From Octopus vulgaris (taxonomy: Eukaryota): 64,000 nt of DNA. Position 1 is the first letter of the stretch; every line of letters starts with the position of its first letter. The DNA is taken from the NCBI GenBank assembly GCA_951406725.2, contig OX597820.1, positions 86,180,001-86,244,000 of the forward strand, written 5' to 3'. Below are positions 3,765 through 42,968 of the stretch, piece after piece. The notes under the pieces are model-generated. The model did not search any database and was not told where the DNA came from. It saw only the letters and a program-made list of their open reading frames with translations. Made by a program: the position numbers and the translations under genes.

Positions 3765-4085
3765 CTTTTAACTGTAGCTTATTTCAGACATTTGAGTGCG
3801 GCTATGCTGGAGCATCACCCTGAAAGGTTTTACTCGAACAACTCCACGCCAGGACTTAGTTTTTTAAGCCTGGTACACATTTTATTCGTCACATTCGTTA
3901 ACACACCAAGCGGTAACAGTGGACACACACACACATAGATATGTATTCGACGGGTTTCTTTCAGTTTCCCTCTACCAAATCTGATCACAAGGCTTTAGTT
4001 GGCCTGAGGCTATAGTAGAAGACATCTATCCAAGGTACCATGCAGAGGGACGAACCCGGAACCATGTGGTTGGGAAGCAAACTTG
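3765..4085 (-). mobile_element. SINE family A, diverged
   Basis: ATGCTGGAGCA..GAACCATGTGGTTGGGAAGCAAACTT. Confidence 0.75.
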
Positions 4086-21439: not shown

Positions 21440-22505
21440 CTATTCTCATTGAACTAGTATACTTTGTTGCATTTAAGTATTCATCAGGTTCAGGTTGCGA
21501 CAGGAACGCTTCGACTGTGGTTTACTGGTTGCCTTTTGTCCTTTATATACATTCCTGTGGGCAGCAGTAGTAGTTACTTGGCTATTTTTAGAAATGTTGC
21601 CAAACCATTTTCCCGTGTTTATTTTAAGAAATGATGATAGCAGCACTTTTTAGGGATTTTTAATTTTTAGGTATAGGGGTAAGATTTTTAAACCTTAAAT
21701 AAGATCAATCTAATCATTGTTTATTAAGCTTGGGTTTGAATTTATTAATAAAATCCTTTTTACTCAGTTTTCTCTCGATTTCATTCAGATTGTATAGTTT
21801 ATGAAATGGAAACATCATAAATGTTTTCCGACCACATATTGCCCGATGTTTACTCAGTGGTATTTGGCGCCCTTCTGGATTTTTAATTTGTTGTAGATGC
21901 ACACGCGAGCGTTCTGATAGTGCATTGCCTTTCTCGCCAACGTACAGTTCTTCACAATTTGGGCATTTGCTGCAGTAGATTAAATTTCTGCTTTTGCAGT
22001 TCATGTTTGCGTTTGTGAATATTTCTCCTGTTTTTGTGTTCATATATGGGCCGGTATGAATTAATTGGCATGTACCGCATCGGCTATCATTGCATTTAGA
22101 CACAGTGAATGTTTGATCTTTGTTGCTCCTTACCTTTGTTAATAACTTTTTCAAGCGCTTAGGCTGTCTTTTACTGAGAGTTATAGTTTGATCTGTAATG
22201 GTATCTCTTAATTCCTTACTTTGTGCAATGATTGGTAGGTTTGATTTAGCGATATTACAGATGTTCTGGTGGCATGGATTATGTGTCACTATAAATAGTA
22301 TGATTTGTTTTTGTTTTTCTCTTCTTTATGGCCTCCTCAGTTGTTGTATGGGTATTTTCATTGTCCACTAAATAGCATTTTCTATAAGTAATGACGGGTA
22401 TTTTCGTTTAAGCAAAAATTCTTTCATTTCCATCAGGCGCTGATTTCTGGTCTTTAAATCTTCTACAATGGTACAGATTCTTCTGGCTAAGCGTTTAAAG
22501 ACCAG
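21440..22505 (-). mobile_element. 5'-truncated Penelope-like element: RT thumb, Cys linker and GIY-YIG endonuclease (ORF 22289-21714), plus 3' pLTR remnant
   Basis: RLARRICTIV..L.EMKEFLLKRKYP; C-x4-C-x2-C linker; CKSRNLIYCSKCPNCEELYVGE..LSERSRVH. Confidence 0.88.
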
Positions 22506-24399: not shown

Positions 24400-25932
24400 T
24401 CTAATTCATTTATATATATATATATATATTATATTAAAAGCAAGTTGTCTGTGTGTGTGTAGTGTGAACCACTTCTATTCCTACCATTTTCAACCAAGTT
24501 TCACCAAAATTTGACATGTGTGCTCTCTTTGACTTAGGACGCTTTTTCTTATAATTATTCCTTGAAATTCCGCGTCCCCAAGATAAATAGAGTTCTCTCA
24601 ATTCGCCAAGGATTTGGCTTCAGCCAGCAAAAAAAGAAAAAAACGTGTCACACACCCAGCTGGACAAAATCAATACTTTGTCAGCTATGGAGAGCTGTTA
24701 TTGACTGCTTGCACAATACTGCCAGCAGTATTCATTCGCGAGTTACGATTTGCCTCTGTTTTCATGTGAGCGCTCTTTTTCATGTGATTATTCCAACTTA
24801 AACTAGCTACTTCATAACTCTTACCCAAAATTAAAAATTCTTAATTCGGTTTGCTTGATTAACATTTTTGCCAACTACATTTTACTATTATTTTGGGTGC
24901 TACACATTCACCGTTTTTTCCTTAGGACTTTTTCTGTTGTGTAAACTGATATTTTTCTACCATGCCTCGGCGCAAATGATCCAACATAGGTCGGCAAACA
25001 AATGCTGCAAAGAAAAGTAAACGTATACATGCAAATGAATCTGCTGAGGACGCCGCCAGGAGGAACTCACTCAGTGCACTTAGGATGGCTTCAGCGCGAA
25101 GAAGGGAAAGTAAAGAGCAGCGTTGTGATCGGTTTGTACGTATTGTTGCGCAACGAGCTGCCCAGAGCAACGAGCAACGTTCAGCACACCGAATAAGAAA
25201 TGCTTCCTCTACTGCTGCTGCACGAGCTTCAGAGACTGTAGCACAACGCACAGATCGACTTACAAGATTTGCTTCCTCTGCTGCTGATGCACAGAGATAC
25301 AGAGACTGCAGCACAACGCGCAGATCGACTTACAAGATTTGTTGCAGCAACTGCTGCTGCTGCGCGCTACGGAGACTACAGGCGAAATACAACAACGACT
25401 GGAGGCTACAACAAAGCGAAGGACGGCACGACGTTCCTACTCAAGGCCATGATCCTCGCGTTGGTCAACGATAGCATTCATCTACGATCCTACAATTTAC
25501 TGTAGTAGTCACCCTGACGTTCAAATAGGCTGCGTATCTACAATCTGCCAATTTTGCCGAGCTAAAAGTGGCGTGGAGAAACTCACGGCATGTGCTGCTC
25601 CAACGGTAAGGTTACGGTATCTCTTCTACAAGATCCTCCACCCCTTTTGACTGATCTTTTGACAGGGGCGTTTCCTTATTCTCATCACTTTCTCAAGTGG
25701 ATACGTGCCTACAACTGCGCGTTCCAAATGACTTCCTCCGGTGCCAACATCATACAAGATGGGCATTTCACGCCTTCCGTTAACGTGTAGGGGCAGATTT
25801 ACCATAGAATTGGTTTCCCGCAGCGGAATGACACTGCCTTGCCTCAGTTTCTTCAGTTCAACTTCGTTGGAGACTACGCTGACCAGGCATACTTAACAAA
25901 CAGCTCTGAGCAACGCCAGGAACGCCTGATAG
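24400..25932 (+). mobile_element. Internally deleted Helitron with RepHel N-terminal remnant (24962-25880)
   Basis: MPRRK*SNIGR; CCSNGKV..FLKWIRAYNCAFQMTSSGA..GQIYHRIG..PQFLQ; degenerate 3' hairpin CTGAGCAACGCCAGG..ATAG|T. Confidence 0.8.
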
Positions 25933-27114: not shown

Positions 27115-30100
27115 TAGGTGGCCAAACCACGACTCGCGAGTCATATGCGGCTCTTTGACCTTTAATATGCGGCTCGTGAATATATCTTGGCTGAGCTCCT
27201 TTTTTCATCACAGTTAATATAGAAGGAAAACATGAAAAATTTCAAGCTTTATAATTATTTACTGAGTAAAAATTGAGACATCACTGGATTAAGAAATAAG
27301 TTTAATGTTCATGGTTAGTAAATATATTTAAGAATTTAAATCCTAATTTTAATGCTAGGTCTGAATGAGACAATGCTCTTTAGTGCTGAGGCAAGGACTA
27401 GTGGGAGGCAGGGTGATTAAAGAAATTTCCAGTCAGCAAGGGTTACAGAGGTATGTCTGAAGTAAGGCGGCGAGCTGGCAGAACCGTTAGCACGCTGGGC
27501 GAAATGCGTAGCCGTATTTCGTCTGCCGTTGTGTTCTGAGTTCAAATTCCGCCGAGGTTAACTTTGCCTTTCATCCTTTCGGGGTCGATTAAATAAGTAC
27601 CAGTTACGCACTGGGGTCGATGTAATCGACTTAATACCTATGTCTGTCCTTGTTTGTCCACTCTATGTTTAGCCCCTTGTGGGTAATAGATAAATAGGTA
27701 TGTCTGAAGAACGAGGTCAAGGGTAAGGGGATTAAAGGTTTGGGTGCATCGGGGATATGAAAGTGAGCACAAGTGGCTTAATGAGTCTAGGCCCGACAGC
27801 ACTCGTCTTCTACATTAATGCAGTGTAAGACGTCGGGCTATGCAGACCTAGTTGGTACATTTCGAATACAAGTTTTGTTTAAAAGTCTCTGGGAAAATTC
27901 TGTGAAGGAAGATGGCCTCCTCAAATTGAGAGAAATGAAAATATGAAGATGAAATTGTAAGCCAGAGTGGGAGATTTTGCATTCACTGTTAAAGGAGGTA
28001 ATTTTTTACTTTATCTGCCATGTATCACTCAGTCATTACAAAGTAAGTCACTTGAAATGCCACTATGAAGTAAATCACAAAAAATTTGCGTATGATTATT
28101 CACCGAAATCAAAATTAAGGAAAATCAAGTTAACTATATTAAAATCAACAGTAAATAGCCAGCGGACACTTTTGACAATGTTCAGTAAAGAAAATAATAC
28201 AATGACTGAAGCCAGTTTTGTTATGTCATGGAATATTGCTCGTGCTAAACGACCATATTCTGATAGCAAATTTCTTAACGAAAATATGGATGAAATTGTT
28301 GCAGTGTTAGATCCAAATAACACAAGACTTCAGCGACTAATAGCACAAACACCAGTTTCACGCCACACTACAGAGAGGCATATCTCTTAGATTAGTACTG
28401 ATGTTGCAGGAAAAATGCAAAATGATTTGAAAAAATCTCTTGCATTCAGTTTAGATCTTGACAAATCAGCAGACGTACAAGACAACCCACAACTGGCAGT
28501 ATTATTCGTTATGTTTCTTCTGATGTAACTATGAAAGAAGAGATCTGTGAATTAGTGGCATTAAAAGAAACAACTCGTGGTATTAACATTAAAAATGCGC
28601 ATGACAGAACCTTAACAAATGCTGATGTTCCACTGAATAAACTCGTCAGTGTTGCAACAGATGGAGCAACTTCTATGGTGGGAAAAAATGTAGGATTAAT
28701 TGCACTCTTGAAAATTGATCCCAGATTTCCAGAGATTCTCCTTGTTCATTGCATTGTACATCGGGAACACCTGGCAGCCAGATACTTCAAGTATGTAGAT
28801 GTTATAAAATCTGTCCTTGAAATTGTTAATTTAATACGCTAATTGGGAAGACTCACTGACAATTTAGAAAATTTATTGAAGAACTGGAGCTTGAAGATAA
28901 ACCAAGTGATATCGCTTTCTATAGCATTGTGGGGTGGCTGCCAAACAACAATGTCTAATTAAATTTGCTAATATGCTGATGCCTCTTATTACTTTTCTTA
29001 AAGAAAATACATCTTATCCTCAACTGGAAAATGAGGGATGAACACAAGGTCTGATGTTCCTTACTGATACAATGAATCATCTACAAACTCTCAACTTGGC
29101 ATTCCGGGAGAAGAATAAGATTGTTTCTAATCTTACTCAGATGATTTTCAACTTTCAGACATATTGCCGAGAAACTTCAGTCACTTTCTCAATCTCACTA
29201 GGAGGGTAAATTCAATTTTCTGATATTGAAATAAAGACCACAAACTGGAAGAATGCAAGGATAAATTACAAGGACTGCTTGATAATTTCCTTGCCTGGTT
29301 TGAGGACTTGCAGAGGCTGAAGCCCTGTTTAGCCTTTCTTGTAAATCCTTGTATGGTTGATATGGTCATTGGTGGATTTTCATTTCTCAAACCTCTGATT
29401 ACGGTATCATCTCCTATGGTGATGGAACTAATGGAATTTCAAGAGGACATGGGTCTAAACATGAACGATAAATCCTAGTCAACAACTGAGCTCTGGAAAC
29501 GATTTCCAGAAATACATTATCCTAAACTGAAGAAAACTAGTGAGCGGCTCATCTCAATTTTCAGCACAATCCTTATAAACCAACACCTGACGGAACTAAT
29601 TCGAACAACCTTGGCGACATATCAGCTAGATTTTCAATTACTTACAGCCAAGATGGAGACCCATAACATTAATAGCCTCTTATTTGTAATATTGTCTGTT
29701 TCTCATAAAAATATTATAAGATTGCAATTTTGTAAGATGGTATGTGATTAAAATATCTCAAATTTTATTGGTTTGCTTTTATTTTATATATTTTCCTCCA
29801 TGTTTCGACCAGATAGTTACTATGACAAATAAATATCTTTAAAAAAATTTTTTTTTTCCTTTTCAGTGTTATTTTTGCCAGTCTAATTTTATGTTACAGA
29901 AATGCAAATTCGCACATTTTTCTGAGAAGTTCCTGTATTAAATGTGCTCAATATAGTTATAACAATCATAAGTCAAGATTTTGAAAACATTTGGTTTGTG
30001 TGTGTATTTTGTAGTTACTGAAACAAATAAAATTAACAGTTTAAAAAGCTGCATACATGAATAATTATTTTTGCATACATGCATTTCTTAATATTTATAT

Positions 30101-36775: not shown

Positions 36776-37617
36776 ACATGAAGCGGCGTACCCAAGAATA
36801 ACCGGAAACGTCTTCTGTGGGACAAACCCATTATAGTTCAGGATTCCGCTGCTATAATTCACTTGATGCGACCCTAGGGCATCAGTCTGCCGACCGGCAT
36901 CATCGGGTGGGCTCGTCCTGCAATTTGATGCGTCTTTAATCTGTAGGGCTTCTCCTCTGCTCGTCGACTTTTGCGATGGCTGAAACGTTAGAACAACGTG
37001 CTTCCAAGAACTTCTGTTTTCTGCTGGGGAAAACGGTGGCCGAAACAGTTGTCTTGTCTCTAACAGCTTACAAGGACGCTGTCATGAGCAAAACACATGT
37101 TTACGGGTGGTTTCCACGCTTTAGGAATAGTCATTTTTCGCTTGAAGATCAACTTCGTAAATTCATGAACTGGACTTGGAGGACCATCACCGAACAATTG
37201 ACGAACTTGTTGATGTGACTGGTGTGCCCGGAAGAACCTGCCAAAGAATTTTGGACGAAGAATTGCGAATGAAAAGAGTTACAGCAAAAATTTGAGCAAT
37301 GCTTGCTCACGGAAGATCAAAAGCAGTCACGACTGAATGCGTGCCGTGAACTGAAAGAACAGTTGAAAGTTAATCCAGACCATTTTTCGAATGTCATCAC
37401 TGGTAACGAATGCTGGTGCTACGGAATTAGCAGATGTGGAAGAGGTATTAAAAAGCATCACTTCGCAAGAGTTCCAGTAGTGCTTCGAGTTGTAGAAAAT
37501 GCGCCTGAATCGTTGCTTCAAATGGAGAATACTTTGAAGGCGAGAAAATTGTAAACATGTAAAACTAATTGAATAAAAAAAACTGCTAACTACGAGTTTC
37601 TATTGGGAATACCCTTG

Positions 37618-37619: not shown

Positions 37620-37689
<70 letters not shown>

Positions 37690-37740
37690 TTAAAATTACT
37701 AAGTCTCTCTAAAAGAGAACAGCGGCAGCGTTCCCGGAAA

Positions 37741-38143
37741 ATAATAGTTATCGCCATACTAATATGACATTCTTATAAAAATAAGAATAAAGCTGTCCGC
37801 TTATTAGCTCCATGAGGCCATCGCCTTAAGTTAGCTATTTGATACACAAACTGTATCCATATAACCTTCGAACAAGGGAGGTCAGTCGCTCCACACTACT
37901 TAACCGGCAGCTACAGACGCGTTTCGGGGTACGCTGCATTGAAAAGGGGCAATACCCCGAAACGCGTCTGTAGCTGCCGGTCAAGTAGTGTGGAGCGACT
38001 GACCTCCCTTGTTCGAAGGTTATATGGATACAGTTTGTGTATCAAATAGCTAACTTAAGGCGATGGCCTCATGGAGCTAATAAGCGGACAGCTTTATTCT
38101 TATTTTTATAAGAATGTCATATTAGTATGGCGATAACTATTAT
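37741..38143. repeat. Near-perfect 191-bp-arm palindrome, 21-nt loop
   Basis: Arms 37741-37931 and 37953-38143; one mismatch seen by eye. Confidence 0.95.
37933..37974 (+). ncRNA. Minimal type I hammerhead, U3-A8 core variant
   Basis: GCTGCA-TTGAAAA-GGGG-caata-CCCC-GAA-ACGCGT-C^TGTAGC. Confidence 0.75.
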
Positions 38144-38265
38144 TATTATATATATATATATATATATATACATAGATATACATACAAACATACATATATA
38201 TACACACACATACATATGTATATACATATATATGTGTGTCTATATATATATATATATATACACAC

Positions 38266-38312
<47 letters not shown>

Positions 38313-38326
38313 TATGTGTGTATATA

Positions 38327-38376
<50 letters not shown>

Positions 38377-38929
38377 TTTATATATATATATACATATGTA
38401 TGTGTGTGTATATATATATGTATGTTTGTATGTATATCTATGTATATATATATATACATATATATATATGTATATGTGTATATATATATACATATATATA
38501 TATGTATATGTGTATATATATATACATATAAAATGTACGAGGAAGTTTCCTCAGGGTGACTCAGACTAATAGGTACGTACTCTGACTGCTCAATATGCTA
38601 TGCCTCTAAATTTCCAGCATAAACAGCAGTTGAATGTGTGATTTTGCGACTGCGTTTCTAAAACATCTACAAATGGCTTCCCTTTGAGCAGGTGTGTATA
38701 GATTAAAAACAGATACGAAGGGATAAACTGTTTACTGGGACTTGTCAAGGACATGTAATTTAACTATATAGTAACATAATGCAATAAATACGCCCATTTA
38801 TACACATTTGTAATATATACACACCTTTTTATTAGATTATATCGTTATATAGCTCAATTAAATGGCGCTGTCCAAGTCTCACCAAACTGTTTGCTTCCTC
38901 AATTTTTTTGCTCTGTATATATATACACA

Positions 38930-42229: not shown

Positions 42230-42968
42230 ATCCGGTCAGCACATAAGATCTGTCCGATTTTACCTTTTTTAAAATTAAATGAAATTTCATAGTATTTCAG
42301 AATGATCTTCTCTCCATTCTTGCGAACTCGTTTCAGACTTTCTAGATAGACTTGCGACTGGTGACGAAAAATGGATCTTCTATCGAAATGTTAAACGTCG
42401 TAAACAGTCGCTTGGTAAAAGGAAAAAAAGCTCAACCACAGCAGAGAAGGAAACTTCATGGGAAAAGGTTCTTGTCTCTATCTGGTGGGACTGCAAATGA
42501 GTAATTCACTTTGAATTGTTACCATTTAATGCAACAGTCAATACCCACGTCTACTGTCAGCAATTACAGCGTTTGAAACAAGCTTTGAAGAAAAAACAGA
42601 CCCGCTTTAGTGAAGCGAAAAGGAGTGATGTTTCATCAGATAGGTGCGCGATCCCACACTGCAAGGATCACATCACAGATAAAATTCCTCATCCATCTTA
42701 TTCTCCCGACCTTGCTCCTACAGACTATCATTTGTTTCGTAGCTTACAGAATCATTTGGGGGACATAACTTTCGCAAGCCAGAACGTTTCAGAGTTTCTC
42801 ACTTTGAAACCAAAGGATTTTTATATTGATGTGATTAAAATGCTTATAAATAGATGAAAGAAATTCATAGATAACCATGGAAAGTACATTGATGATTAAA
42901 TTTCAATTAAATATTTGATTACTAATTTTCTTTCTTCAAAATTCGGACAGAACTGATGGGATGACTTG
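42230..42968 (+). mobile_element. Internally deleted mariner (DD34D type)
   Basis: KVLVSIWWD, YCQQLQRL, PHPSYSPDLAPTDYHLFRSLQ; TIR TCTGTCCGATTTT / AAAATTCGGACAGA. Confidence 0.85.

Follow-up and report, generated by a model that had tools for sequence, protein, structure and literature searches.

This study focused on a 405-bp palindrome in a window of the Octopus vulgaris genome (the window being the whole stretch of DNA that was analysed, 64,000 nt). The reading that we prefer, at a probability of roughly 0.6, is that the palindrome represents two head-to-head copies of the end of a high-copy repeat, likely the pseudo-LTR of a PLE or of a non-autonomous derivative, and that both copies likely arrived in one insertion through two RT events primed from both strands of a cut (TA)n tract. 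The insertion is likely recent, and gene conversion could also keep the arms alike. Read in this way, the locus would be an ordinary PLE-type insertion with an already described layout, and its value lies in being an entry to a young and abundant family, the junctions of which could test how inverted PLE ends and one-sided tails are formed, a matter named as unresolved in the available text of PMC8557442. A second use of these junctions would be to test if the template for transposition undergoes hammerhead cutting in vivo; the portion of PMC11167929 at hand reports no reads ending at the hammerhead cut site.

The palindrome and its surroundings

The inverted repeat comprises two arms of 192 bp each (37740-37931 and 37953-38144) with a spacing of 21 nt, and the sole mismatch between them is A at 37902 versus C at 37982 (1/192 sites). 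An earlier note on this DNA had recognized the single mismatch but gave the arm and span as 191 and 403 bp, which are corrected here to 192 and 405 bp. It also placed the start of the left arm inside stem II of a hammerhead and let that arm run about 55 bp further; the extension is real, and measures 56 bp, but the arm starts in loop II (37953). The locus is made up of the following features:

37621..37683, no strand: (TA)n tract of 31.5 copies (96%), left part of the likely target microsatellite
37684..37739, minus strand: one-sided extension ("tail") of 56 bp on the left copy, family sequence rather than flank, by depth
37740..37931, minus strand: left arm, an inverted 5'-truncated copy that begins in hammerhead loop II
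37930..37931, no strand: TA microhomology of 2 nt at the head-to-head junction, common to both copies, mirror of 37953-54
37932..37952, plus strand: loop of 21 nt, forming the 5' half of the hammerhead on the sense strand and running straight into the right arm
37933..37974, plus strand: type I hammerhead motif, predicted to cut after C37968
37953..38144, plus strand: right arm, a sense copy that is tail-less, its ATT-rich end merging into the microsatellite
37767 (mirror 38117), no strand: rare allele present in both arms (its share of family depth in each run is given below)
38147..38530, no strand: compound array rich in (TA)n, on the right side of what is likely the target microsatellite

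The unit does lie between (TA)n tracts, as had been claimed, with the tract at 37621-37683 on the left and the TA-rich array at 38147-38530 on the right. An AT-rich or microsatellite target, a trait of PLE insertions, is therefore present, but it says little by itself in a window with 109 tandem-repeat rows, and no target duplication is discernible. A second copy of the unit was not detected by blastn in the 64-kb window.

Several decayed elements surround the locus. Directly left of the (TA)n tract is a mariner-type transposase remnant at 36940-37215 (+), continuing to about 37619 (Pfam HTH_48, E 1.3e-6); its end, and the letters at 38536, resemble mariner terminal repeats. A mariner-type DDE fragment (Pfam Transposase_1) is found at 42501-42857 (+). 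An STPR-like repeat frame, below the cut-off, belongs to the remnants listed at 24980-25474 (+) and 27953-28842 (+), among which there are also frames that we take to resemble hAT-type transposase.

The repeat family and its junctions

A search of public sequencing runs listed 24 runs from 14 studies, and in 20 of these runs at least half of the sampled words were present; no RNA run containing the family was among the 24 listed. Runs coded as eight different organisms hold the family at 58-77% of words, including three with only 5-6 million letters, and this near-identity across organisms may reflect close relatives, mixed samples or recent spread. For the family comparison, contigs of four runs (X1, X2 and X3, from three studies, and X12, which is only guessed to be RNA) were aligned to 37684-38010 at 85% likeness. 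The summed depth over arm, tail and hammerhead was about 1e5 to 1e6 in X1-X3 (about 3e5 to 1.7e6 for the tail, like the arm), where single junction contigs had 10-188. Although this is not a copy number, it makes plain that the family is very abundant and that the arm, the 56-bp extension and the hammerhead are all family sequence.

Non-inverted family members, which the earlier note had proposed to look for, were found as contigs that align up to 37930 and then diverge upstream. It follows that the two copies share the TA at 37930-31, and that the 5' end of the window copy has been clipped. In one contig the family sequence extends at least 103 letters upstream of 37930, giving a unit of at least 350 nt. 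None of the four runs had a listed variant at 3% or more within 37932-37976, and the U3-A8 pair of the hammerhead is therefore the family state; the smaller number of variants in the hammerhead (in X1, 0 sites in 45 nt versus 12 in 217 nt) was not significant (P = 0.08). A common subfamily carries a tail variant one base shorter (window 37714-37744; loose ends 37718/37723), a 1-nt indel that argues against a constrained reading frame or a coding tail. In another family variant, the roughly 20 nt that follow stem I on its 3' side are different (loose end 37897, X2).

No description of the family was found in listings of the open literature; it may be catalogued in Repbase, in Dfam or in non-open papers. 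The supplement of PMC13282606, in the file available, contained neither a hammerhead term nor the motif; the repeat library is not part of that file. Recently active Penelope families have been reported from Octopus vulgaris, according to the available parts of PMC13282606 and PMC8967140.

In the four runs, the share of family depth with the window letter at 37767 (mirror 38117) is only 0.2%, 1.2%, 0.2% and 0%. Since both arms carry an allele of about 1% or less, one source made both. This sharing is hard to reconcile with two independent back-to-back insertions, or with a later inverted duplication of one copy, followed by gene conversion. The family is abundant enough for copies to become neighbours, and a single mismatch would suit such a history, but target DNA is absent between the two copies and the mirror symmetry ends exactly at the element boundary, with no flank copied. 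We regard this explanation as very unlikely.

Eleven further antisense-to-sense junctions with other breakpoints were counted among the joints listed (four in X1, six in X2 and one in X3). The count consists of 10 of 15 joints listed and one from a second table, the first table having 16 joints in total; left out were a plain deletion (37771-37825), four opposite-strand joints of unclear or trivial meaning, and 37817/37760. Antisense 5' ends lie 54 to 243 nt into the element, the antisense piece is wholly inside the tail in three of the 11, and the breakpoint gap varies from about 12 to 250 nt. In eight of the ten junctions with a value, 2-5 letters fit both sides. The sides are only 21-28 letters long at 85% likeness, which brings a risk of mis-joins, and nine of ten are marked "between: not known". 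Head-to-head joining looks routine for this family, and the window copy sits near the short-loop extreme of the set. No tail-less 3' ends at 38144 were listed in the family data. A contig of X2, at a depth of 36.5, joins the tail end (37684) to the hammerhead start (37932) on opposite strands; this could be a head-to-tail tandem junction, though it stands at the edge of the aligned stretch.

These junctions also bear on whether the palindrome is an assembly or library fold-back chimera. The exact apex is bridged by no contig piece among those listed (32 of 5,748), as a chimera would lead one to expect. A fold-back read, however, would mirror the flank, whereas here the left side continues into the family tail and the right side into the microsatellite; the arms differ at one site, and analogous junctions occur at depths of 10-188 in three studies. 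A chimera is considered highly improbable.

Origin of the head-to-head copies

In the preferred explanation, a PLE RT/GIY-YIG protein would cut both strands of the microsatellite. Priming of cDNA would occur from one 3' end at an outer start, 37684 (the end of the tail), and from the other at a start 56 nt further in (38144). With uncut RNA of a single source as template, both cDNAs would run toward the hammerhead and end at about 37953 and 37930. Their ends would then be joined via the common TA, followed by filling in. Since the start of the right copy lies upstream of the predicted cut site, its template was uncut. A purified PLE protein has been found to cut and extend both target strands in vitro, with a preference for ATT, and two RT start sites bounding the genomic tail, as well as uncut RNA as the main template, are described in the same source (PMC11167929, in the portion available). 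Inverted 5'-truncated copies, one-sided tails of 30-40 bp and (TA)n targets are all on record for PLEs in the accessible text of PMC8557442 and PMC3846280. Twin priming for PLEs is something that we infer; no description of it was found in the open literature, where the titles and abstract openings retrieved concern other elements.

A member of the same PLE-type family might instead have folded back, or primed itself, on a single template (cDNA or antisense RNA), in which case the tail of the right arm was lost in the course of the insertion or later. For head-to-head PLE palindromes, a proposal of self-priming with an antisense template exists (PMC3846280, available part), and the short loop (21-23 nt), the TA microhomology and a shared rare allele are each what a single template could give. 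However, the position of the tail argues against a simple fold-back. The loop, in sense orientation, continues into the right arm, so that this arm would have been the template, yet it has no tail. At the 3' end the left arm exceeds it by 56 bp; the loop-bearing arm, being the shorter one there, cannot have templated the 56-bp tail, and an extra deletion is required. The three of 11 junctions with an antisense piece wholly in the tail are not expected from hairpin fold-back either, and the gaps in the other 11 junctions are mostly too long for a hairpin. We therefore think fold-back unlikely. The earlier note had put forward a PLE-type insertion made by fold-back or template switching; its PLE-type and recent character stands (1/192 mismatch, high copy, published layout, U3-A8), simple fold-back does not, as the tail is on the wrong arm, and the switching or joining of two cDNAs fits the twin-primed insertion favoured here.

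A search for an autonomous PLE parent linked none to the unit. There is no ORF in or beside the unit, and a 30-aa frame in the tail had 0 matches among 1.84 billion proteins, in what was a weak search. A 25-nt hammerhead pattern had 0 matches in metagenome, prokaryotic genome and viral contigs, where the host is not expected, and P0002 gave 36 pattern matches in genome contigs, 0 of them confirmed. The window's only PLE protein match is the broken 3' fragment of an RT + GIY-YIG PLE at 21714-22490 (-), with a CxxxxCxxC linker and about 52% identity to P0001 over 263 aa; it lies 15 kb from the palindrome and shows no DNA similarity to it and no hammerhead match.

Comparison loci were reached from the GIY-YIG fragment at 21714-22325 by way of 10 longer relatives labelled RT and/or GIY-YIG, and were taken as the best 80 of 496 related loci. 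The unit itself had no blastn match to these best 80 of 496 at E 0.5. A hammerhead motif was present in 15 of the 80, some of the loci being redundant, and in all 15 it was on the ORF strand; in 13 of the 15 it was downstream of the match, and in two (L041 and L045, both PLE-related metagenome loci) the core reads UUGAAAA. L045 has an RVT_1 + GIY-YIG ORF followed, 76 nt after the stop, by a U3-A8 hammerhead (position 2216). L041 (hammerhead at 3851) has the same stem III letters and cut base as the window motif, and has no stop-free frame of 200 aa in the standard code. As to orientation, we infer the element's sense strand at the window locus from its hammerhead motif.

The hammerhead and its likeness to known systems

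The hammerhead with a U3-A8 pair that was first read from the letters, across the loop and the beginning of the right arm, is borne out by the location of its core and stems at 37933-37974. Stem I (37933-38/37969-74) has 6 bp, including one G-U. The core at 37939-45 is UUGAAAA, with U3 at 37939 and A8 at 37944, and the other core letters are canonical. Stem II (37946-49/37955-58) has 4 bp and a 5-nt loop, the GAA is at 37959-61, stem III consists of 2 bp within the palindrome ACGCGT (37962-67), and C17 is 37968. The U3-A8 covariation is natural and active in vitro (PMC3088659, in the text available). A descriptor scan of the 64 kb gave this single match, against 0/100 for block-wise Markov shuffles of the window, with descriptor thresholds that were fixed after the motif had been seen. 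On the minus strand, the letters of the core's 5' half do not occur in the order required. Over the 64 kb, Rfam returned nothing at gathering score; over 37860-38146, with E up to 10, none of its hammerhead models matched, and the three hairpin matches in that interval, far below the gathering score, were rejected as chance fits to the palindrome.

Folding predictions depended strongly on where the RNA starts. For a read-through RNA (37684-38144) the long hairpin is predicted to win: stems I and II have pair probabilities of at most 1e-9 and can be imposed only at a cost of +41.1 kcal/mol, so folding of the hammerhead in this context is not predicted. For an RNA starting at 37930, stems I and II are predicted at 0.7-0.9 and stem III at about 0. 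The hammerhead at this locus is thus predicted to be silent in read-through RNA, sequestered in a 192-bp hairpin, and would be a passenger for which cutting needs a loop-start transcript and a partner copy. It is likely dimer-dependent, weak palindromic stems III needing a dimer according to the available text of PMC4209133. Family members continue upstream of 37930 with other letters, by which the window copy is clipped; these upstream letters, judged by eye, could extend stem I. The earlier description of the hammerhead as "intact" consequently applies to the core letters, but not to the clipped upstream side, to a stem III predicted to be absent in the monomer, or to the +41 kcal/mol read-through context.

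The junctions of other copies carry a hint, from their positions alone, that the family hammerhead may be active in cells. In five of the eight junctions with a sense start inside the visible range, that start (joints 37971-37978) lies 2-9 nt downstream of the predicted cut (versus a uniform spread, binomial P = 0.005, for an interval picked after seeing the data). Keeping the three junctions that start at 37930 gives 5/11 (P = 0.026).

The canonical geometry bears on another possible identity of the family, that of a non-LTR retrozyme (tandem units of 150-450 bp with a canonical type I hammerhead, spread by circular RNA), with the locus as an inverted by-product. The unit of at least 350 nt, the possible head-to-tail joint 37684/37932 and the 1-nt tail indel, which argues against a coding tail, are compatible with this, and the available part of a preprint (10.64898/2026.07.22.740005) argues that retrozymes are themselves non-autonomous PLE derivatives. 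On the other hand, there is no tandem unit at the locus, where a single hammerhead was counted and not the array of a retrozyme; among the joints listed, 11 are head-to-head and one, at the edge of the aligned stretch, is possibly head-to-tail; and a one-sided tail with an inverted layout is a PLE trait. A retrozyme family is, in our judgement, distinctly unlikely, and the PLE-type pseudo-LTR end remains the preferred identity.

Variation in X12 raises the matter of RNA editing. Over 37684-38010, 17 of 21 variable places in this run were A>G or T>C, versus 12 of 31 in the other three runs pooled (Fisher P = 0.004). Of the twelve X12 changes that stayed below 0.1% of depth in each of X1-X3, 11 were A>G or T>C, on both strands. 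This pattern is what A-to-I editing of family RNA would give; the signature comes from one run, guessed to be RNA and from another individual, and for six of the A>G changes the depth value is identical, so that they likely stem from a single contig, which does not fit the locus beyond 37930. Insertions of this type, provided that they occur often in transcribed DNA, would supply long double-stranded RNA for editing in one step. The available text of PMC5625713 describes this for a frog repeat that is palindromic, and for lizard Penelope copies with heavy editing.

Put together, these observations allow a broader picture, which as a whole is unlikely: an uncatalogued young non-autonomous PLE derivative with a retrozyme-type hammerhead may routinely land by twin priming, its single insertions making long RNA hairpins that feed A-to-I hyper-editing, and its hammerhead may cut in vivo and set the 5' ends of many copies. 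If true, this would be genomic evidence for PLE hammerhead activity, together with a natural record of how inverted ends and tails are formed. The PLE hammerhead was dispensable in one in vitro study.

Among known systems, the telomeric PLEs of the Terminon/Athena type have a hammerhead at the apex region of an asymmetric terminal palindrome. TTAGGG is the telomeric motif; it had no match beside the unit, between 35019 and 49226, and its count in the window was 16 versus 18.4 expected, this motif being the only one counted. Compared with the Terminon/Athena clade (traits from the accessible part of PMC8557442), the window unit differs in having no TTAGGG, in being flanked by (TA)n, and in that its hairpin consists of two whole element ends.

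Metazoan non-LTR retrozymes (PMC7229834 and 10.64898/2026.07.22.740005, as far as available) share with the window family a short non-coding high-copy unit and a canonical type I hammerhead that likely needs a dimer, but differ in that the window unit is head-to-head, tailed, inserted in a microsatellite and not part of a tandem array.

With regard to the hammerhead, the minimal PLE type has a helix II of 7-8 bp, an extra base between 9 and 10.1 and no helix III, whereas the window motif has a helix I of 6 bp, a helix II of 4 bp and no extra base after A9, a canonical geometry more typical of retrozymes than of PLE minimal hammerheads (PMC4209133, available text). PLE hammerhead variants with a small palindromic helix III are described in the same source, and one was also found in the PLE-related locus L015. 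The window motif resembles Cercyon-type PLE hammerheads of Schistosoma, which share U3-A8, G10.1-C11.1, a palindromic stem III and type I topology; about 1,300 PLE-related U3-A8 hammerheads are recorded there, and pairs on opposite strands are described as well (PMC4209133, portion at hand).

Finally, the pseudo-LTR insertions of EN+ PLEs (PMC3846280, PMC8557442 and PMC11167929, in the parts available) differ from the window unit in that the latter has no ORF and has a tail of 56 bp rather than the usual 30-40, with an indel variant that suggests the tail may be non-coding. The correspondence is otherwise broad. Both have a head-to-head inverted 5'-truncated copy with variable breakpoints (11 further junctions, with short sides, in the present family), a terminal repeat of about 200 bp, an extension at one end, an AT-rich or (TA)n target, and a hammerhead near the 5' end of the repeat.
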